Positions 4,201 through 27,773 of a DNA stretch of 32,000 nucleotides are shown here, one piece after another. The notes under the pieces are model-generated. The model worked only from the letters and a program-made list of their open reading frames with translations. It made no database searches and was not told the DNA's origin. Every line of letters begins with the position of its first letter. Position 1 is the first letter of the stretch. The stretch is from NCBI RefSeq assembly GCF_001735745.1, contig NZ_CP017260.1:2250001-2282000 (forward strand), written 5' to 3'. A program made the translations under genes and the position numbers. The DNA is from Formosa sp. Hel1_33_131 (GTDB lineage: Bacteria; Bacteroidota; Bacteroidia; Flavobacteriales; Flavobacteriaceae).

Positions 4201-6698
4201 CTGTAGATACCACCACAACAGGTTCAGAATATTTTGACCTCGTAGTTACTCCTCAGGTAATAAGAAAGATAATTTTAACAGCCACAGATAGGGTAAGTAC
4301 TAATCCAGGGGTAAATAACATAGAACTTTTTGGAGCGACGACAAATGATTTAGATATAACTCATGTATTACACAATAACGCAGATATCCATATTGAAAGC
4401 ATAGGGGATTTATCGATTACTAATACAGATGTAAACGACGGAACAAATTTTTACATAACAAATACAACAGGGGCAGATAGAACTTTATCTTTTGTAGGAT
4501 TTACAGGAGCCTTTCTAAGGAATGGTGGGGCAGAGGCAGATGTGAAAACAGGAGGCTTAACATTAAAATCTAATACGAGATACCTCGCTCATGTCACAGA
4601 CAATGCAGGGAGCTTCTATTTCAATGCGACTGAGGCTAGGGGAAGTGGAGTCATTGTGCCATTATGGAAATCTGACACAAATGGAGGATTATACAGTACC
4701 AATGATATTGTAAATTACAACGGGGTTTTATACAAAAATCTTACAGGAATGAATCTTGACACAATCCCAAGCTCAGACACTACAAACTGGGCACAAACAA
4801 ATTCATATCTTGGTAATCAAACAGTACATCATAATGCTGTTACTACACTTGCCATAAAACACGCAGACCACAATAACGCAGATATTCATGTAGAAAATAC
4901 GGGAGATTTGTCTATAGCAAAAGTAGATGTAAACGACGGAACAAACTTTTATATAACTAATACATCAGGAATGGACCGACTGTTAACATTCACCTCTTTT
5001 ACAGGAGCCTTTCTAAGGAATGGTGGGGCAGAGGCAGATGTGAAAACAGGAGGCTTAACATTAAAATCTAATACTAGATACCTCGCTCACATTACAGACA
5101 ATGCAGGGAGCTTCTATTTCAATGCGACTGAGGCTAGGGGAAGTGGAGTCATTGTGCCATTATGGAAATCTGATACCAACGGAGGATCATATGCTATCGA
5201 CGACATTATTAACTACAGTGGAGTTTTGTACAAAAATCTTACAGGTATAAACTTAGATACATTACCAAATGCAGATACAACAAATTGGAAACCAACAGTT
5301 ATTGATGAAAATGACGGAATATCAGCTAAGGACTTACTTGTTTTAGATGGAAATGGGTTAGCTATTGGGGGAGTGATTACTACTGATGGAGCACACACAG
5401 TCCATACTTTTACAACAAGTGGTACATTTGTACCAAACGGGAATACGAACATTGAATACCTTATTGTTGGAGGTGGCGGTTCTGCGGGTATTAGTGGTGG
5501 ATTCTCTCCTTCTGGTGGAGGTGGAGGTGGAGGAGTTCTCACAAACACAACCACAATAGCAAACGCCAACACACCAATTGTAGTAGGACAAGGTGGAGTC
5601 CCTGTTTTTACTGGTGTATTTAGTACATCTAGTGCTACAAACGGAGGGGACAGTTCCCTAGGAGGAATTACAGCTACTGGAGGTGGAGCTGGAGGTTCTA
5701 GTCATGTGGTTAACACAATAGGAGGTGTTGCAGCACCCATTTATGGAGCAGGACTAAATGGTGGTTCTGGTGGGGGCGGTGGTAGAGCTAACACAAATAC
5801 AGCAGGTGGTCAGCCCACAGCAGGTCAAGGTAATACAGGTGGACAAGGAGCAAATCCCAACTCTGGAGGTGGAGGTGGAGCTTCAGCAGCTGGAGCAGAT
5901 GCAGCAGGAAACACACCAGGTGCAGGTGGAGAGGGATTGTCTTCAAGTATTTCAGGAACATCTCAAGTGTATGGTTCTGGTGGTGGTGGAGCTCATAGGA
6001 GTTTTTTAACGCTAGTCCCTGGAGGAACTAACGCAGGTAATGGTGGATTACCTGGAGGATTGGGAGGAAATGGAATAGATGGATTTGGTGGTGGAGCAGG
6101 TGGAACAGGTAATGCAGGTTCAAGCATAATAACTGGTGCAAACGGCGGAAGTGGTGTTGTAATTATTCGATACTTAACAGATAATGTAACAACTGTACTA
6201 GCAACCAATAACGGAAATGTAGGAATAGGAACGGATACTCCAACCCACCTCCTTTCAGTTAATGGGAATGCTTCCAAGGTAGGAGGAGGGTCATGGGCTA
6301 CATTTTCAGATGAACGCGTAAAAGAAAACATTCGTTCTTATGGTAAAGGACTTGCCGAAATTCTAAAAATAAATCCGATTATCTTTAACTATAATGCAAA
6401 ATCAGGATATACAGGGGAATTTTTGAAGAAAGACTATGTAGGTATCACCGCACAAGAAATTGCCAAAATACTTCCAGAGACAGTGACAGAATTCGATGAT
6501 TCCAATGGGCCAAGTGGATTTGCTGACAAAAGACAATTTGATAGTTCTGAAATCTTATGGACTGTTATCAATGCCATACAAGAACAACAAGCACAGCTAA
6601 AAGCGAAAGAAAAAGCAATAGAGGACTTAAAAGCAAGTAATGAAGCTCTAAAAATTAGAATGGTTAAAATTGAAAAAGCATTAGGGGTTAAGGAATAA
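1236..6698 (+). CDS. Giant secreted tail-fibre-like protein (1820 aa): 4 repeated modules, jelly-roll-like domains, F5/8-type-C-like insert, glycine-rich domain, C-terminal peptidase-S74 intramolecular chaperone domain
   Basis: A single uninterrupted 5.46-kb ORF. N-terminal signal peptide ...LLSFQSQA|QVV. Four ~160-aa modules each end in a W..Y..D.V.Y.G..Y.N......P......W motif (CBM5/12-like, as in phage fibres). Gly-rich block HTFTTSGTF...VGGGGSAG...GSGVVIIRY. The C-terminus carries NVGIGT...SDERVKENI...ITAQE plus a coiled coil, the hallmark of tail-spike/endosialidase auto-cleaving chaperone domains. Confidence 0.85.
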   Translation: MKITFTLNKSRRYIITLLVVGLLSFQSQAQVVKVIDRKGTITDVNNNQVTTSLATAKPTNPVIGDVWFETDTLISEIWDGTNWVKINTWLGYKTIHHNHATMPLAITHALHNNADIHIEGVAGLSITNTAVNDGTNFYITNTTGADKALSFAGFTGAFLRNGGAEADRSVYGLTLKPNTRYLCHITENSGFYFNATEAGGSGDIVPLWKSDTNGGDYAINDIINYDGNLYKNLTGDNFDTLPNADAANWEVFAGGVSPTGNPNYLQAEITTTGVTQGSTLAFTVNESRGLSYTGNAISLKQGTTYLLRGAVSGYFNSSTNNELRLQWEDANGVKIGELSRQMPGSVYENYAETPEASAVYTPTADIDVHLEVVVEGSEFTAQGNSFGYLQVIELSRGGGTGIALYDVNTDYSTGDSVIKDEKIYIANGNIPSGTLFATGTAGATWKEIYEDANRQTYDTPTAVFSETISSQLRGFGDYWTLSAQVVDDPTNHLGHDGTYPVVNVAGKYRITFSGNVYHHGTYHWMSLAIRRGGVWQNITKADGGNSQYVPGSAVHANFLIDGVVDLQVGDQLGYRYDSDGNHYLLNANTNNMIVSKLSYGIGNIRIYDLADTYQIGNVVIKDTKLYQANDAIPATTAFVIGTTGATWTEISADVSAVREWVNNTNGGIYAINDLVSYSGVIYRNLLGSNLDTIPSSDTTNWAQTNSYLGNQTVHHNAVTTLAIKHADHNNADIHVENTGDLSIAKVDVNDGTNFYITNTSGMDRLLTFASFTGAFLRNGGAEADVKTGGLTLKSNTRYLAHVTDNSGSFYFNATEAGGSGDIVPLWKSDTNGGLYSTNDIVNYNGVLYKNLTGMNLDTIPSSDTTNWAQTDSYLGNKTIHYNTLSLSANPTKETLSSIVSVTSTNATFVYDGVGATITTNSSYSGSYDIEDALTGNDHATAGQGTETITITFDSDVKFSKMRGNGRPIEYYKDLSMTVYDAGNNSLATAVDTTTTGSEYFDLVVTPQVIRKIILTATDRVSTNPGVNNIELFGATTNDLDITHVLHNNADIHIESIGDLSITNTDVNDGTNFYITNTTGADRTLSFVGFTGAFLRNGGAEADVKTGGLTLKSNTRYLAHVTDNAGSFYFNATEARGSGVIVPLWKSDTNGGLYSTNDIVNYNGVLYKNLTGMNLDTIPSSDTTNWAQTNSYLGNQTVHHNAVTTLAIKHADHNNADIHVENTGDLSIAKVDVNDGTNFYITNTSGMDRLLTFTSFTGAFLRNGGAEADVKTGGLTLKSNTRYLAHITDNAGSFYFNATEARGSGVIVPLWKSDTNGGSYAIDDIINYSGVLYKNLTGINLDTLPNADTTNWKPTVIDENDGISAKDLLVLDGNGLAIGGVITTDGAHTVHTFTTSGTFVPNGNTNIEYLIVGGGGSAGISGGFSPSGGGGGGGVLTNTTTIANANTPIVVGQGGVPVFTGVFSTSSATNGGDSSLGGITATGGGAGGSSHVVNTIGGVAAPIYGAGLNGGSGGGGGRANTNTAGGQPTAGQGNTGGQGANPNSGGGGGASAAGADAAGNTPGAGGEGLSSSISGTSQVYGSGGGGAHRSFLTLVPGGTNAGNGGLPGGLGGNGIDGFGGGAGGTGNAGSSIITGANGGSGVVIIRYLTDNVTTVLATNNGNVGIGTDTPTHLLSVNGNASKVGGGSWATFSDERVKENIRSYGKGLAEILKINPIIFNYNAKSGYTGEFLKKDYVGITAQEIAKILPETVTEFDDSNGPSGFADKRQFDSSEILWTVINAIQEQQAQLKAKEKAIEDLKASNEALKIRMVKIEKALGVKE
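1500..1987 (+). repeat. Intragenic module M1 (most diverged copy)
   Basis: WLGYKTIHHN...NNADIHIEG...DGTNFYITNTTGAD...FTGAFLRNGGAEAD...FNATEAGGSGDIVPLWKSDTNGG.YAINDIINYDGNLYKNLTG...NADAANWEV. Its 5' part resembles M3. Its 3' end resembles M4 (YAI.DIINY..LYKNLTG.N.DTLPNAD..NW). Confidence 0.85.
3351..3848 (+). repeat. Intragenic module M2 (mosaic: 5' two-thirds matches M4, 3' third matches M3)
   Basis: 3306-3539 is identical to 4758-4991 (234 nt). 3541-3637 is identical to 4993-5089. 3711-3845 is identical to 4665-4799 (135 nt). Offsets are 1452 nt (to M4) and 954 nt (to M3), both multiples of 3. Confidence 0.9.
3880..4335 (+). other. Unique insert between M2 and M3, galactose-binding/F5-8-type-C-like domain candidate
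   Basis: The ~150-aa segment ...FVYDGVGATITTNSSYSGSYDIEDALTGNDHATAGQG...ITFDSDVKFSKMRGNG...VNNIELFGA is present once only. The composition and the NNIELFG ending resemble discoidin-type carbohydrate-binding modules. This is a weak by-eye assignment. Confidence 0.35.
4347..4802 (+). repeat. Intragenic module M3
   Basis: DLDITHVLHNNADIHIES...ITNTTGADRTLSF.... The DNA from 4501 on aligns to M2 (3547 onward) with few mismatches. The central patch ~4600-4664 is identical to M4 ~5098-5163. Confidence 0.9.
4803..5291 (+). repeat. Intragenic module M4
   Basis: SYLGNQTVHHNAVTTLAIKHADHNNADIHVENTGDLSIAKVDV... is identical at protein and almost identical at DNA level to M2 until ~5172. It then switches to an M1-like tail. 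Confidence 0.9.
6306..6698 (+). other. Peptidase-S74-type intramolecular chaperone (auto-cleaving) domain of the giant protein
   Basis: Ser codon at 6306-6308 and Lys codon at 6321-6323 within S-D-E-R-V-K, the Ser-x4-Lys spacing of the endosialidase/tail-spike chaperone catalytic dyad. A terminal heptad-like helix follows (QEQQAQLKAKEKAIEDLKASNEALKIRMVKIEKAL). Confidence 0.7.
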
Positions 6699-24183: not shown

Positions 24184-26232
24184 ATGAAAGATATAATGAA
24201 CCTTTTTCATAAAAATCACTCCTTAATTTATAAGGTCTTTCTTTTTGTGTTGACCACTTTTGTAATTGTCTATTTGTTTCCGAAAAGTGGAACTTTCAGA
24301 TACAGTTTTGAAAAAGGAAAACCTTGGCAGTCCGAAAATCTATACGCACCTTTTGATTTTGCAATCAAAAAAACAGCCGAAGAAATTGAGGCAGAAAAAC
24401 AGCAAATTACACTACAGTCTCCTGTCTTTTTCGATGTGGATACCACCCTAATCACTTCGGTTAAAAAGGAGTATTCTTCAGCATTTGACCGCTTGTTTTT
24501 TGAGCTACCAAGAGACCAAATCAAAATAGACTTATATTATAGGGGAGTTGTACTTTTGGATGAATTGTATCAAAGTGGTGTACTTCAAGATTCATACGAT
24601 TATGATACCAATCAGCAGATCTCTATTTTGGTTGATAAAACGCAAAGTGGGGTCAAACGTTTTGATAGCTTTTTTCTTCAAACGAATTTAAAATCATTTG
24701 TAGAATCGAGTGTGGAAGCTTTGGGTTTAGAAGCCTATAAGCAACGTTACTTGGCACTGTTTTTTGACGTTGTAAAACCCAATGCTCAATTAAACAAAGT
24801 CATTACTCAAATTTCGTTTGAAGAACGCTTAAGTCAAATGAAATTAGTAAGAGGGCGTGTCGATAAGCAAACCCTTATTATCTCAAAAGGGGAAGTGGTT
24901 CAAGGCGATAAGTATGCCGTTCTAAACTCATTAGTGTCTGAATATGAATCACAGGTATGGACCGATTCAAACTATACTCTAGTTGTGACGGCTTATACAG
25001 TTTTGGTTTCATTGGCTTTATTGATGCTATTGTTGTTTATGAAAAAATACAGAATGGAGGTGTTTTCAAACAATACCAAAGTCACCTTTATTTTTTTCAA
25101 TATCGTTTTGATGGTATTCTTAACCACTTTGGTTGTCAACTTCAATTCATCTTATATTTATATTGTTCCCCTGTGTATTTTGCCTTTAATACTGAAAGCC
25201 TTTTTTGATGCCCGATTGGGCTTGTTTACGCATGTGATCACGGTACTATTGTTAGGATTTGTAGTCGCAAATAACTATGAGTATATGTTTTTGCAAATCA
25301 TCGCTGGTATTGTCACAATCTTAACCGTTTCGGAACTTTATAAGCGCGCAAATTTATTTATATCTGTGGGACAAATCACTCTAATATACATAGTGTCTTA
25401 TTTTGCATTTTTTGTAATTCATGAAGGAAGTATTGATAATTTAAAATGGGAAACCTTTTTGTTGTTTGTTTTGTGTGGATTGGCGACGCTGTTTGTGCAG
25501 CCTCTCATATATGTGTATGAAAAACTCTTCGGACTTGTTTCGGATGTATCGTTGTTAGAATTGTCAGATACCAACTCTAAACTCTTGAAAGAACTGTCTG
25601 ATAAGGCGCCAGGAACCTTCCACCACTCTTTAAATGTAGCAAATTTAGCAGAAGCTGCCGCTAACGAAATAGGCGCCAATACAATGCTTGTAAGGGTAGG
25701 AGCCTTGTATCACGATATCGGCAAAATGAAAAACCCTACCTATTTCACCGAAAACCAAATGACAGGAACCAATGCACATGATGAGTTGTCTCCAAAAGAA
25801 AGTGCGAAAATCATTATCAACCATGTTATTGATGGGGTCGAATTGGCTAAGAAAAACAATTTGCCCGACCGTGTTATAGATTTTATTAGAACGCATCATG
25901 GTACAAGTACTGTGTATTACTTTTATAACAAACAAAAAGAGTCGAATTTAGATTTTGAAAATAGTGATTTTTCGTACAATGGACCCAAGCCATTTAATAA
26001 AGAAACGGCCATCCTTATGATGTGTGATAGCGTGGAAGCGGCGTCCAAAAGTTTAAAGGATCCCAATTCCACTAAGATAAATAATTTTGTAGATGCGATT
26101 ATTTCCAAACAAATGGATACAGATCAATTTTTGAATGCAGATATTACTTTGAAAGAAATACAATCCATTAAGAAGGTGTTGAAGCAAAAATTGGCCAACA
26201 TGTACCACTTGCGCATTGAATATCCGGACTAA
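24184..26232 (+). CDS. 7TM receptor with intracellular HD hydrolase domain (PgpH/YqfF-like HDIG phosphohydrolase)
   Basis: N-terminal TM segment plus extracellular region, then ~7 hydrophobic helices (aa ~265-450), then HD domain motifs HHSLNVANLAE, LYHDIGK and THHGTS. Confidence 0.75.
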   Translation: MKDIMNLFHKNHSLIYKVFLFVLTTFVIVYLFPKSGTFRYSFEKGKPWQSENLYAPFDFAIKKTAEEIEAEKQQITLQSPVFFDVDTTLITSVKKEYSSAFDRLFFELPRDQIKIDLYYRGVVLLDELYQSGVLQDSYDYDTNQQISILVDKTQSGVKRFDSFFLQTNLKSFVESSVEALGLEAYKQRYLALFFDVVKPNAQLNKVITQISFEERLSQMKLVRGRVDKQTLIISKGEVVQGDKYAVLNSLVSEYESQVWTDSNYTLVVTAYTVLVSLALLMLLLFMKKYRMEVFSNNTKVTFIFFNIVLMVFLTTLVVNFNSSYIYIVPLCILPLILKAFFDARLGLFTHVITVLLLGFVVANNYEYMFLQIIAGIVTILTVSELYKRANLFISVGQITLIYIVSYFAFFVIHEGSIDNLKWETFLLFVLCGLATLFVQPLIYVYEKLFGLVSDVSLLELSDTNSKLLKELSDKAPGTFHHSLNVANLAEAAANEIGANTMLVRVGALYHDIGKMKNPTYFTENQMTGTNAHDELSPKESAKIIINHVIDGVELAKKNNLPDRVIDFIRTHHGTSTVYYFYNKQKESNLDFENSDFSYNGPKPFNKETAILMMCDSVEAASKSLKDPNSTKINNFVDAIISKQMDTDQFLNADITLKEIQSIKKVLKQKLANMYHLRIEYPD

Positions 26233-26266
26233 ATTAAAAAAGCTTACAAAAAAGTAAAAAAATAGT

Positions 26267-26297
26267 TTGCGTTCTAGATAATGAAAAGTTACATTTG
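26267..26297 (+). promoter_or_regulatory. Bacteroidota sigma-A-type promoter of the tRNA operon
   Basis: TTG (26267-26269), a 20-nt spacer, then TACATTTG (26290-26297), matching the -33 TTG / -7 TAnnTTTG consensus. It lies ~36 nt upstream of tRNA-Ser. Confidence 0.55.
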
Positions 26298-26332: not shown

Positions 26333-26416
26333 GGAGAGGTGCCAGAGTGGTAATGGAGCAGATTGCTAATCTGTCGACGGGTAACTGTCGCCAGGGTTCG
26401 AGTCCCTGTCTCTCCG
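26333..26416 (+). tRNA. tRNA-Ser (anticodon GCT)
   Basis: Acceptor ggagagg/tctctcc. Anticodon arm gcaga-ttGCTaa-tctgt. Long variable arm cgacgggtaactgtcg. T-arm cagggttcgagtccctg. Confidence 0.9.
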
Positions 26417-26447
26417 CAAGAAGTAAATTAACAACAGATAATCAATT

Positions 26448-26522
26448 CGGGGTGTAGCGTAGCCCGGTTATCGCGCCACGTTTGGGACGTGGAGGCCGCA
26501 GGTTCGAATCCTGCCACCCCGA
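26448..26522 (+). tRNA. tRNA-Pro (anticodon TGG), copy 1
   Basis: Acceptor cggggtg/caccccg. Anticodon arm ccacg-ttTGGga-cgtgg. T-arm gcaggttcgaatcctgc. 75 nt, 100% identical to 26910-26984. Confidence 0.9.
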
Positions 26523-26528
26523 CAAAGA

Positions 26529-26560
26529 GGTCGTCACGCTAGAAGCGTGACCACCCCGAC
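26529..26560 (+). repeat. tRNA-end fragment: first 5 nt of tRNA-Arg, then a GTCACGC hairpin, then a duplicated tRNA-Pro 3' end
   Basis: ggtcg (as at the start of tRNA-Arg, 26991), then gtcacgc-tagaa-gcgtgac (26533-26551), then caccccgac (26552-26560, identical to 26515-26523). Confidence 0.75.
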
Positions 26561-26668
26561 TAAAGTGTTTTCGTTTATTCGTAGGCACTTTTAAAATTAA
26601 TAGAATGTCTGTTGTTAATTTGTTTTTTAGTTTTTAATTTATTTTAAGAACAAATTTGATAACAAATT

Positions 26669-26786
26669 CGGGGTGTATCACGCAGAAAATGCGTGACAGG
26701 ACGTAGCCCGGCTTGCAAAGCCAACGGAATTGTTATCGCGCCACGTTTGGGACGTGGAGGCCGTCACGCTGAGGCGTGACCACCAC
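26669..26786 (+). pseudogene. tRNA-Pro(TGG)-derived pseudogene interrupted by three short hairpin-forming segments
   Basis: The segments cggggtgta, cgtagcccgg and ttatcgcgccacgtttgggacgtggaggccg are identical to the intact gene. They are interrupted by tcacgcagaaaatgcgtgacagga (26678-26701) and cttgcaaagccaacggaattg (26712-26732). The T-arm is replaced by tcacgctgaggcgtgac (26764-26780), and the 3' acceptor is degenerate (caccac). Confidence 0.8.
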
Positions 26787-26909
26787 ATTAAAAAGGATAT
26801 GAATGAATTTTCATGTATTTTTTAGTTAAGTTCATAGTAGAAGTGAAGCATTAATTTTGGAGCGTAAAATCAAAAAAAGAGGTGCGAGAAGATATTTAGA
26901 TAACCAATT

Positions 26910-26984
26910 CGGGGTGTAGCGTAGCCCGGTTATCGCGCCACGTTTGGGACGTGGAGGCCGCAGGTTCGAATCCTGCCACCCCGA
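26910..26984 (+). tRNA. tRNA-Pro (anticodon TGG), copy 2
   Basis: Identical to 26448-26522, offset 462 nt. Confidence 0.9.
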
Positions 26985-26990
26985 CAAAGA

Positions 26991-27064
26991 GGTCGCATAG
27001 CTCAGCTGGATAGAGCACCTCCCTTCTAAGGAGGCGGTCCTAGGTTCGAATCCTAGTGCGATCA
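26991..27064 (+). tRNA. tRNA-Arg (anticodon TCT)
   Basis: Acceptor ggtcgca/tgcgatc. D-arm tagctcagctggatagagc. Anticodon arm cctcc-ctTCTaa-ggagg. T-arm ctaggttcgaatcctag. Only 6 nt separate it from tRNA-Pro. Confidence 0.9.
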
Positions 27065-27067
27065 CTT

Positions 27068-27096
27068 AAAGCTTCACAGAAATGTGAGGCTTTTTT
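27068..27096 (+). terminator. Rho-independent terminator of the tRNA operon
   Basis: gcttcaca (27071-27078), loop gaaa, tgtgaggc (27083-27090), followed by tttttt (27091-27096). Confidence 0.75.
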
Positions 27097-27209
27097 GTTT
27101 GTATCCTTTTATTGACAGGGTATACAGAGCTTCTCTACATTGAAATCATTTTTTAAAAGAGCTTTTGTAAAAATAGCTTTTTACTTTAATTAATCAAAAT
27201 TTATAAATA

Positions 27210-27244
27210 TTTGACAGACATTTGACAGACATTTTCCTGACAAA
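27210..27244 (+). repeat. Tandem TTTGACAGACA direct repeats
   Basis: tttgacagaca occurs twice (27210-27220, 27221-27231), followed by a degenerate third unit ttttcctgacaaaa. A related ttgacag lies at 27112-27118. Confidence 0.7.
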
Positions 27245-27403
27245 ATTCTCCAATTTAGGGGCTTAGTTAGTAATATTAATATTTTTTTTGCCACACTTCC
27301 ACTACTAACTTGAATTGTCCTGAGTAAAAACCCAAAAAAACTAGACTTACCAATCCATAATAATAACACCCCACTACCTAAATAATATCACTTTCCTTTT
27401 TAG

Positions 27404-27773
27404 GGTTATCTTCGTAGAACAGGGTATTACCCAAAACCTAAGCTTGTGAAATAATTTATTGGTTACCATTATACAGATGAAATAGGGGTTAAAACTATGT
27501 AAACGAAGTTATTAGTCTACGTATTAAGAGTATTTTTGTTAAGCGTTATAAAACTTCGTGCAGGGGTTACCTTCTATCTCTTTACGAAAGACTGTGTATT
27601 GTCTTTTCAAATTTATATTAGATCATAAAAAAGGATTAACCTTTACGATTAACCCTGATTACAATTTATTTATAATGTGATTTTTATCACATAAAAACAA
27701 AGGGCTAACGTTTTTGTTAACCCCATGTTTTGTTAGGGAGTGTAAAATGTGGCAGAGGGGTTACCTTTATCTC
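27404..27773. repeat. ORF-free region dense in GGGTTA-type motifs, direct repeats and hairpins (candidate ori/iteron or recombinase-binding region)
   Basis: Motifs: gggttatc 27404, palindrome gggtattaccc 27422-27432, ggttacc 27461, ggggttaaaac 27485, ggggttaccttctatctc 27563-27580, ggattaacc 27633, gattaaccc 27647, gttaacccc (minus-strand ggggttaac) 27716-27724, and ggggttacctttatctc 27757-27773. Hairpins: acgaagtt/aacttcgt (27503-27510 / 27552-27559) and atgtgat/atcacat (27675-27692). Confidence 0.65.
27692..27724 (-). terminator. Probable terminator of the primase-helicase gene
   Basis: Minus strand: ggggttaac-aaaaac-gttagccc (7/8 bp stem) followed by tttgttttt, ~45 nt downstream of the stop at 27767. 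Confidence 0.5.

Follow-up and report, generated by a model that had tools for sequence, protein, structure and literature searches.

A tRNA-Pro look-alike with hairpin-substituted arms belongs to a decayed GIY-YIG nuclease cassette in Formosa

Introduction

SegB, a GIY-YIG nuclease of phages T4 and T6, is encoded in a phage tRNA cluster and cleaves within tRNA genes; its homologues are enriched beside tRNAs of many isotypes, and it drives tandem amplification of a tRNA-Tyr plus segB unit by way of microhomology that the 5′ end of the tRNA shares with the 3′ end of segB (PMC13096335). A bacterial locus with several of these traits is described here. The stretch analysed, called the window throughout, is 32,000 nt of Formosa sp. 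Hel1_33_131 (NZ_CP017260.1, positions 2,250,001 to 2,282,000), and between two tRNA-Pro(TGG) genes it contains a third, interrupted copy. This middle copy is a tRNA-Pro look-alike, termed Pro*, followed by the remnant of a small GIY-YIG nuclease gene that related loci carry intact.

Free-standing GIY-YIG open reading frames (ORFs) of fungal mitochondria (atp6/cox) insert at the end of a gene together with a replacement copy of the segment. They resemble the locus described here in that a partial duplicate of the target lies beside the ORF and a complete functional copy is kept, but their targets are protein-coding organelle genes and the fragment decays, whereas Pro* is tRNA-like, conserved and covarying. 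Seg endonucleases carry a DNA-binding domain and SegB is taken to be of the homing-endonuclease lineage. A conserved tRNA mimic whose arms are swapped for hairpins is, to our knowledge, not described for SegB.

The closest matches of the nuclease in both sequence and structure are minimal single-domain GIY-YIG proteins of the UPF0213/Slx1-like type (1zg2, 1ywl). Dunin-Horkawicz et al. 2006 (PMC1564403) have placed stand-alone bacterial proteins of this sort in an Slx1 cluster, apart from homing endonucleases, and treat their genes as being of a repair type and passed on vertically. Neither a link with tRNA genes nor a structured element is reported for them in that work, where tRNA enters only through the fusion of a prokaryotic Slx1-like domain with a tRNA methylase of the TrmH type (PMC1564403).

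Results and Discussion

Anatomy of the middle copy

A first-pass annotation of the window had described two identical tRNA-Pro(TGG) genes bracketing a third copy, with hairpin-forming inserts in the D region of that copy and a hairpin in place of its T arm. ARAGORN and Rfam, which agree in their tRNA calls across the window, together with alignment confirm the two genes and their identity to each other, and the inserts and the replacement hairpin are seen both in the alignment and in the predicted fold. At the middle copy itself (26669-26786) there is no ARAGORN call, and no Rfam match even at E ≤ 10.

In a three-way alignment the middle copy shares CGGGGTGTA, CGTAGCCCGG and (G)TTATCGCGCCACGTTTGGGACGTGGAGGCC with the real tRNA-Pro genes. 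It keeps the 5′ two-thirds of tRNA-Pro (UGG): in its acceptor 5′ strand, anticodon arm and variable region it does not differ from tRNA-Pro, and the third retained segment, made up of TTATCGCG, the anticodon arm and GGAGGCC, is unchanged. The D region has received a 23-nt insertion with a G10 to A change (equally, 24 nt in place of G10) and a further insertion of 21 nt. The T arm is replaced by a hairpin of the form GTCACGC-N4-6-GCGTGAC followed by CACC (26763-26786), as in the family described below. The earlier statement that the retained parts are free of point mutations is nearly true, with the reservations that G10 may have changed to A and that the acceptor 3′ strand is degraded. With a disrupted D arm and no T loop, the copy lacks the T arm, the 7-bp acceptor stem and the score above 29 bits that mark a tRNA (RF00005).

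The predicted fold is a cloverleaf-like multibranch structure (−46.9 kcal/mol, z −2.07) in which a 4-bp acceptor stem is combined with both inserted hairpins, the anticodon arm and the hairpin that stands for the T arm. Three matches to the hairpin core TCACGC-N3-8-GCGTGA are found in the window, always at this locus (26534, 26678 and 26764), whereas chance would give none. One of the three, absent from the first-pass annotation, directly follows Pro copy 1. It belongs to a solo unit, X, which is the counterpart of the 3′ third of a Pro* and is placed here after a real tRNA-Pro.

The middle copy is identical in three other independent metagenome assemblies (loci L001-L003). An assembly artefact, which had been named earlier as a possible refutation, is therefore rejected, with the qualification that repeat copy number could still be collapsed in short-read assemblies.

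The nuclease gene and its remnant

The sister strain locus L004 has an intact ORF for a 79-aa GIY-YIG protein exactly at the site that follows the middle copy in the window. What had looked like a spacer (26787-26909) is thus the remnant of a gene. There is no plus-strand ORF of 60 aa or more at this place in the window, where intact cassettes have an ORF of about 79 aa 12-16 nt past the element; only the remnant (26787-26919) is present. It keeps a short 5′ leader (26787-26799) and about 26 nt of degenerate 5′ coding sequence, has lost roughly 130-150 nt by internal deletion, and preserves the last ~90 nt of the ORF (26826-26919). As in intact cassettes, the 3′ end of the ORF and its stop codon lie inside the next tRNA-Pro, the TAG at 26917-26919 corresponding to tRNA positions 8-10 of Pro copy 2. 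Pro copy 2 is the complete tRNA that every cassette retains 3′ of the nuclease gene. There is very little doubt that a dead GIY-YIG cassette (26658-26919) is what remains here and that the middle copy is its Pro* element.

The intact ORF ends in ..RYLDNQFGV*, which is encoded by the gataaccaatt leader and the first 10 nt of the next tRNA-Pro. Thus the leader that had been noted ahead of the tRNA-Pro genes is the 3′ end of a gene. The locus has three versions of it (gataatcaatt, gataacaaatt and gataaccaatt, ahead of Pro copy 1, the middle copy and Pro copy 2). Since the leader of Pro copy 1 agrees in sequence with the final codons of the GIY-YIG ORF, it is likely the footprint of an earlier cassette.

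Pfam identifies the 79-aa protein as GIY-YIG (7.5e-14). Searched as a profile against solved structures, it finds the UPF0213 proteins 1zg2 (8.5e-9) and 1ywl (4e-7) and SLX1 (7e-4), with UvrC and I-TevI marginal (I-TevI at 0.18 by sequence and 0.32 by fold). An AlphaFold (AF2) model, made from a protein 95% identical to the L004 ORF (P0121), has a pLDDT of 95.8 and, among known structures, comes closest to 1zg2 and Slx1 7cq3 (TMq 0.68, rmsd 2.1 Å). Catalytic residues are conserved in the family, and Y, Y, R, H and E are common to the UPF0213/Slx1-like proteins. Searches of NCBIfam, PHROGs and PADLOC gave no match. By these comparisons the nuclease is no more than a catalytic domain, and it resembles nucleases that are structure-specific more than it does the classical homing enzymes with their sequence specificity. 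Among the traits of SegB- or I-TevI-like homing endonucleases, the GIY-YIG catalytic domain is found in intact relatives, not in the window itself, and presence/absence polymorphism at a fixed site is found among close relatives; an extra DNA-binding domain and a UvrC+ lineage are absent (79 aa, single domain).

The cassette family across genomes

One genome per GTDB species was scanned, which gave 316 relatives, and the best 80 loci were fetched for family counts. Hosts among these best 80 loci include Formosa-like metagenome-assembled genomes, Lutibacter, Algibacter, Dokdonia, Aquimarina, Kordia, Arenibacter, Maribacter, Winogradskyella, Gelidibacter, Christiangramia, Altibacter, Eudoraea and one Fulvivirga. 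Many Flavobacteriaceae encode a homologue of this 79-aa protein, and nearly all of these homologues end in D-(N/D)-(Q/H)-F-G-V*. A complete cassette consists, in this order, of Pro*, ~12-16 A-rich nt, the gene for the 79-aa minimal GIY-YIG protein and an intact tRNA-Pro. The T-hairpin GTCACGC..GCGTGAC is present within 60 nt upstream of 82 of the 90 intact ORFs, in 81 cases as part of a tRNA-Pro-like element. The 3′ end of the ORF overlaps a genuine tRNA-Pro in 56/90 and another Pro* in 10/90, the latter in tandem arrays. By inspection, without a tally, essentially all T-hairpin matches in the fetched loci have a tRNA-Pro, Pro* or cassette context.

Pro* in general begins as tRNA-Pro does and follows it for the 5′ two-thirds, in some cases with two additional D-region hairpins, then has the 7-bp hairpin in place of the T arm, then CACC. 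It may be bare, with the T arm alone replaced, or may carry a hairpin H1 after position 9, a hairpin H2 before UUAUCGCG, or both, as in the window; a few forms have an altered or extended anticodon hairpin. The positions of the hairpins are the same even between distant genera, where the nuclease proteins share only ~65-70% identity. The H2 insert of the window is identical at 19 of 21 nt to that of Arenibacter, whose nuclease is ~65% identical. In other genera a unit like X is placed after 10 of the 72 real tRNA-Pro genes.

No description of such a system was found in Creative Commons-licensed PubMed Central (PMC) papers or in bioRxiv. Rfam, applied at its gathering threshold to 15 cassette loci and both at that threshold and at E ≤ 10 to the window, returned only tRNA matches plus chance ones (for example plastid untranslated-region models on tRNAs). 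The Pro* cassette, a GIY-YIG nuclease family with a tRNA-Pro look-alike as leader, thus appears to be previously undescribed as far as searched.

Some insert-free Pro* elements are called tRNA-Pro(TGG) by ARAGORN (L014:2412-2488, L024:27-103, L039:2413-2489, L060:2411-2487, L072:2411-2487 and L035:2417-2492), and one passes the Rfam tRNA threshold at 33.6 bits. Counts of tRNA-Pro in Flavobacteriaceae may therefore be inflated, which is a risk for annotation.

Conservation of the structure

A covariance model, R1, was built on a hand-defined structure from 21 elements of other genera, none of them from the lineage of the window. It finds the window copy over its full length (positions 1-118) with 104.2 bits (E 1.5e-24), gives 45.9 bits to real tRNA-Pro genes, and matches the solo X unit (26528-26551) at 19 bits. 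H1 and H2 of the window align to R1 with high posterior probability at the positions they have in the family.

Alignment of all 77 Pro* with MAFFT misplaced the 5′ ends of insert-free elements, and pair counts were taken from class-specific alignments (A4 and A6). RNAalifold did not recover H2, of which two sequence types were misaligned; H2 was defined by hand and its pairs then counted. Among 29 elements of the H1+H2 type, 97% of cells pair, a level reached in 0 of 500 shuffles, and slid controls give 30-47%. In these 29 elements, three pairs of H1 show compensatory changes, for example CG:20/UA:8, and in the 21 elements from other genera H2 shows CG:15/UA:5 and AU:13/CG:2/GC:2. The 7-bp stem that replaces the T arm is invariant (28-29/29 and 20-21/21 elements), with a loop of 4-6 nt that varies in sequence; its CACGC/GCGTG core is also that of H1. 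The covariation in H1 and H2, as read from these alignments, is evidence of a structure under selection. Unlike in tRNA pseudogenes, the parts of Pro* that are not tRNA are conserved.

Two earlier interpretations can be judged from these results. The view that palindromes were recently inserted into a tRNA gene does not hold, as homologous inserts occupy the same points in distant genera with compensatory changes and are not dispersed in the window. The alternative of a structured RNA on a tRNA scaffold comes close to the data, and lacked only the nuclease context. The same interrupted copy in related genomes, with compensatory changes and a match to a known RNA family, had been named earlier as a refutation; the changes are found, and Rfam has no such family.

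Concerted evolution of the retained segments

Of the 50 loci with both a Pro* and a real tRNA-Pro, 38 show no difference between the two in the anticodon arm and variable region. Four host variants of the anticodon stem (CCACG, CCGCG, CCTGC and CCTCG) track between Pro* and tRNA, and the exceptions are mostly single substitutions that break a pair. This points to gene conversion between adjacent repeats, restricted to homologous segments, as what keeps the retained tRNA segments perfect. Concerted evolution with the neighbour accounts for the perfect segments, so a recent insertion is not needed to explain them. Pro* is, on these alignments, best described as a mosaic in which H1, H2 and the T-hairpin are specific to the cassette and conserved across genera, and the tRNA segments are overwritten by the neighbour.

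Two loci depart from this pattern. The Pro* at L077:2372-2488 has the stem CCTGC next to a real tRNA-Pro with CCGCG, a foreign type, and the Pro* at L080:2362-2482 is a chimera (CCACG..CGCGG). They look like the footprints of a horizontal arrival and of the end point of a conversion tract.

Strain variation at an identical flank

The gene upstream of the tRNA cluster (24184-26232) encodes a PgpH-type HD protein, and an identical protein is found on several marine-metagenome contigs. Beside this identical flank the cluster varies. The window has the order Ser-Pro-X-Pro*-deltaORF-Pro-Arg. L001-L003 have a second interrupted copy directly after tRNA-Ser and 1-2 extra 37-nt hairpin units, that is, two dead cassettes, and L004 shares the identical PgpH and has the intact ORF. 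Further states are seen in relatives that have the PgpH-linked locus. L088 is a plain Ser-Pro-Arg cluster in which the ORF-like leader is kept (AGATAATCACTT). L086, L087 and L089-L094 have Ser-Pro-104 nt-Pro-Arg with neither hairpin nor ORF; their spacer is homologous to positions 26561-26657 of the window (by-eye comparison with L086, L087 and L091), and the Pro-Pro duplication thus predates the cassette. L095 has Ser-Pro*-ORF-Pro*-ORF-Pro-X with two intact ORFs, and L096 and L097, with the same PgpH protein as L095, have Ser-Pro-X followed by an insertion sequence.

Tandem arrays of cassettes reach at least 4 units. Copies within one genome, also when on different contigs, are 82-100% identical, versus a mean of 72% between species. 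Judging from their sequences, all observed forms can interconvert by recombination between the tRNA 5′ part, GGAGGYC and CACCCCGA, and Pro-X would be the expected product of ORF loss through recombination of Pro* with Pro.

The hairpin unit caaagaggtc-GTCACGC-tagaa-GCGTGAC-caccccga (37-38 nt) forms arrays of 1-4 copies in L001-L004 (L001:6045-6120; L003:5583-5657 and 6082-6157; L004:5583-5680 and 6013-6165). The number of units differs among strains with an identical flanking protein, the window having one after Pro copy 1 and none after Pro copy 2. At L096:4557-5390 and L097:4557-5390 a DDE transposase lies directly past Pro-X and displaces tRNA-Arg.

Expression

Only ~12-16 A-rich nt separate Pro* from the ATG of the ORF. 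This leaves no room for a promoter, and Pro* and the ORF are therefore most likely transcribed together, as one RNA from the tRNA promoter. Upstream of 93 Pro* elements there is another family ORF in 34, tRNA-Ser in 15 and a TAnnTTTG box in 27 (at 11-72 nt). An acceptor stem of 4-6 bp stacked on the 7-bp hairpin would keep the helix at ~12 bp, the length of the acceptor/T-arm helix by which tRNAs are recognised by their processing enzymes, and processing of the leader in the manner of a tRNA is therefore conceivable. It is also plausible that an RNase P cut at the downstream tRNA would remove the stop codon of the ORF and so act as a brake on nuclease expression.

Comparison with SegB and a wider class of relatives

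The likeness to SegB lies in a same-strand GIY-YIG gene among tRNA genes, an overlap of its 3′ end with a tRNA 5′ end, tandem amplification, and the many isotypes seen across relatives. In our own reading the SegB cleavage motif RAWTSGAAC is the reverse complement of the tRNA-Pro T-arm sequence GATTCGAAC, and it is precisely in place of this arm that Pro* has its hairpin. The differences are that SegB is larger than 79 aa, as its C-terminus can lose 28 aa (PMC13096335), and that it is phage-borne, versus a bacterial chromosome here. With moderate confidence the cassette is said to work like SegB, and it is not filed as a member of that group.

A divergent relative of the nuclease (P0179) lies after tRNA-Leu(CAA) and is followed by Leu-like elements in which the anticodon and T arms are both 7-bp hairpins with a CCGAT/ATCGG core. 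Another (P0178) lies at tRNA-Pro(GGG) with partial copies that bear hairpins. In a metagenome scan with P0179, 64 of 80 relatives have a same-strand tRNA within 400 nt, and the adjoining isotypes include Gln, Ala, Tyr, His, Asp, Glu, Met, Lys, Val, Leu and others. Of 40 ORF-tRNA pairs, 31 have incomplete copies of the adjoining tRNA (≥12 nt) close by. Five pairs were inspected: two Gln, one Met and one Ala show the anticodon arm, the T arm or both replaced by an unrelated GC-rich 7-bp hairpin, and the fifth is Arg (L150). The element in the window thus appears, from sequence comparison, to be one degenerate member of a large class of tRNA-resident mini-nuclease cassettes.

Loci of these relatives are L098:2362-3000, L099:60-660 and L100-L179, for example L160:1-470, L139:1130-1600, L156:65-460 and L126:1120-1640.

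Origin of the middle copy

The middle copy is probably the relic of a selfish nuclease cassette that resides in tRNA-Pro(UGG) units and is driven by recombination. Such a cassette would spread and amplify through homologous recombination at tRNA-Pro genes, probably triggered by breaks that the nuclease makes at or near the tDNA. The host would always be left a working tRNA, because the duplicated 5′ part of the tRNA flanks the cassette. Pro* would be co-transcribed with the nuclease from the tRNA promoter as a structured leader; its replaced T arm would render it useless as a tRNA and, by analogy with SegB, perhaps a poor target for the nuclease. Gene conversion with the adjacent copy would homogenise the retained tRNA segments.

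Several points weigh against this reading. The nuclease is a bare catalytic domain of the Slx1/UPF0213 lineage with no DNA-binding domain, and classical sequence-specific homing is therefore doubtful. The intact tRNA-Pro beside the nuclease gene is unchanged, which leaves the 'immunity' of carrier alleles unaccounted for. The T-hairpin stem and H2 are strongly conserved in sequence from genus to genus, which seems to be more than a mere leader would need. The 'empty' sites retain the ORF-like leader, so there is no truly naive target site among them. Finally, no vector-like copy was found on IMG/VR viral contigs, where the single match to the T-hairpin with its flanks lies in a coding region of a high-GC phage without a tRNA and is therefore regarded as a chance match.

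Of the alternatives, the one that survives best, and which is still unlikely, holds that Pro* is a working tRNA-mimic RNA and the partner of the nuclease, so that the cassette is an RNA-protein pair. As a decoy or antitoxin, Pro* would sequester a nuclease that otherwise attacks tRNA-Pro or its gene; as a scaffold or guide, it would steer a domain-poor nuclease to tRNA-Pro loci. A partnership would fit the tight linkage of Pro* to the ORF (82/90), the covariation of H1 and H2, and an invariant T stem with a 4-6 nt loop, which is more like a protein-bound hairpin than a double-stranded operator. The CACGC/GCGTG core common to H1 and the T-hairpin has a parallel in the Leu-type locus L098, where the replacement hairpins share CCGAT/ATCGG. 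The sequence of the mimic also follows that of the host tRNA, the nuclease itself is devoid of a nucleic-acid-binding domain, and the fusion of an Slx1-like domain to a TrmH-type methylase hints at RNA metabolism (PMC1564403). The ~37-nt tandem hairpin units ahead of the L004 ORF loosely recall the repeats of type III toxin-antitoxin systems. However, the identity to the neighbouring tRNA reaches into the DNA leader, for which gene conversion is the simpler explanation, and single substitutions in Pro* often break anticodon-stem pairs. Many Pro* do without H1 and H2, the searches of PADLOC, PHROGs and NCBIfam are empty, and dead cassettes like that of the window persist without obvious harm. 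If the partnership is nevertheless real, small Slx1/UPF0213 GIY-YIG nucleases of Bacteroidota and their tRNA mimics might form unrecognised RNA-protein systems with the mimic as functional partner, a suggestion that is only tentative. It is put forward with equal caution that this class might comprise one subfamily per isotype (Pro, Gln, Ala, Tyr, His, Leu, Met and others), each with arms swapped for 7-bp hairpins specific to its cassette.

Less probable still is a domesticated host module for the maintenance, processing or copy-number control of the tRNA-Pro operon, comparable to the role of Slx1 in maintaining rDNA repeats, which the lineage of the window would have lost. The wide distribution in Flavobacteriaceae at the same type of locus, often as Ser-Pro*-ORF-Pro-Arg, would agree with it, as would the preserved catalytic residues and the Slx1-type nuclease, since eukaryotic Slx1 acts on arrays of repeated genes (PMC1564403). 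A host module is hard to reconcile with presence/absence and pseudogenisation among strains with identical flanks, with tandem amplification and multiple loci per genome, with relatives that adjoin many tRNA isotypes, or with the foreign-type Pro* in L077.

A tRNA-Pro pseudogene freshly hit by palindromes resembling repetitive extragenic palindromic (REP) sequences or miniature inverted-repeat transposable elements (MITEs), or a product of ordinary decay or misassembly, is very improbable: the inserts do form hairpins between intact tRNA segments, but the hairpin core is confined to this locus in 32 kb, homologous inserts share their insertion points and compensatory changes in distant genera, a model from other genera gives 104 bits, the sequence recurs in independent assemblies, and no viral or other dispersed copies turned up in the IMG/VR scan.

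If the selfish nuclease cassette is the right reading, the multi-copy genes annotated as 'GIY-YIG nuclease family protein' in Bacteroidota would gain a context as tRNA-gene-resident cassettes, with a testable function. They would be a chromosomal counterpart of SegB with a bearing on tRNA gene copy number and operon evolution in bacteria. Pro* would be a new sort of tRNA mimic, its arms swapped for conserved hairpins and co-evolving with the cognate tRNA, and with it one could cleanly probe what is recognised by a GIY-YIG domain on its own.

Other described elements were considered for the locus and rejected. Dispersed REP- or MITE-like repeats do not match its three copies in 32 kb at one locus. 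For a toxin-antitoxin pair of type III and the ToxIN kind, the fold is GIY-YIG and not ToxN/AbiQ, PADLOC gives no match, and repeats precede the ORF only in some strains. Duplication of an integrase att site would involve the other end of the tRNA, as the duplicated part here is the 5′ two-thirds, and the nuclease is the sole gene between the repeats. The inserts are too short for a group I intron or a split tRNA, and an intact tRNA lies downstream. The T-hairpin is not an intrinsic terminator, as no U run follows it.

Features of the locus and flanking sequence

Features of the locus are collected in Table 1. TAnnTTTG with an upstream TTTG is the established promoter consensus of Bacteroidetes, and a putative promoter of this type precedes the tRNA cluster.

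Table 1. Features of the tRNA cluster in the window (coordinates are those of the window)
Feature	Coordinates	Strand	Basis and remarks
Putative Bacteroidetes-type promoter of the tRNA operon	26266-26297	+	Read from sequence; −33 TTTG 26266-26269, −7 TAcaTTTG 26290-26297
tRNA-Ser(GCT)	26333-26417	+	ARAGORN; Rfam RF00005, 54.4 bits
Leader gataatcaatt ahead of Pro copy 1	26437-26447	+	Same sequence as the last GIY-YIG ORF codons (..LDNQF)
Functional tRNA-Pro(TGG), copy 1	26448-26523	+	ARAGORN; Rfam, 67.5 bits
Solo X unit	26527-26560	+	GAGGTC + T-hairpin GTCACGC-TAGAA-GCGTGAC (26533-26551) + CACCCCGAC
Spacer	26561-26657	+	Homologous to the ~104-nt spacer between two plain tRNA-Pro genes of relatives
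Leader gataacaaatt of the middle copy	26658-26668	+	Read from sequence
Pro* element (middle copy)	26669-26786	+	Three-way alignment; model R1 match
Pro*, acceptor 5′ strand + UA	26669-26677	+	Alignment
Pro*, hairpin H1	26678-26696	+	Alignment
Pro*, D-loop remnant	26697-26711	+	Alignment
Pro*, H2 insert	26712-26732	+	Hairpin CAAAGCC-AAC-GGAATTG at 26716-26732
Pro*, D 3′ strand + anticodon arm + variable region	26733-26762	+	Alignment
Pro*, T-arm replacement hairpin	26763-26780	+	GTCACGC-TGAG-GCGTGAC
Pro*, degraded acceptor 3′ strand	26781-26786	+	CACCAC in place of CACCCCGA
GIY-YIG nuclease gene remnant	26787-26919	+	Global alignment to the intact gene L004:5707-5946
Functional tRNA-Pro(TGG), copy 2	26910-26985	+	ARAGORN; Rfam, 67.5 bits; leader gataaccaatt
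tRNA-Arg(TCT)	26991-27065	+	ARAGORN, Rfam
Intrinsic-terminator-like hairpin + T run closing the operon	27068-27103	+	Follows tRNA-Arg

The spacer between the X unit and the middle copy matches that of L001-L003 at 100%. An inverted repeat of 10 nt, TTAACAACAG at 26428-26437 and CTGTTGTTAA at 26609-26618, flanks Pro copy 1 and its hairpin unit; it may be due to chance and is partly kept in L087.

Divergence of the window from the sister strains begins right past the tRNA-Arg terminator region (27066-27766). The window has ~550 extra non-coding bases there, ahead of a penicillin-amidase gene, and this extra stretch contains the direct repeat TTTGACAGACAT twice, near 27213-27236. Relatives have an integrase (L087) or other genes 3′ of tRNA-Arg, and the region is therefore a strain-variable hotspot.

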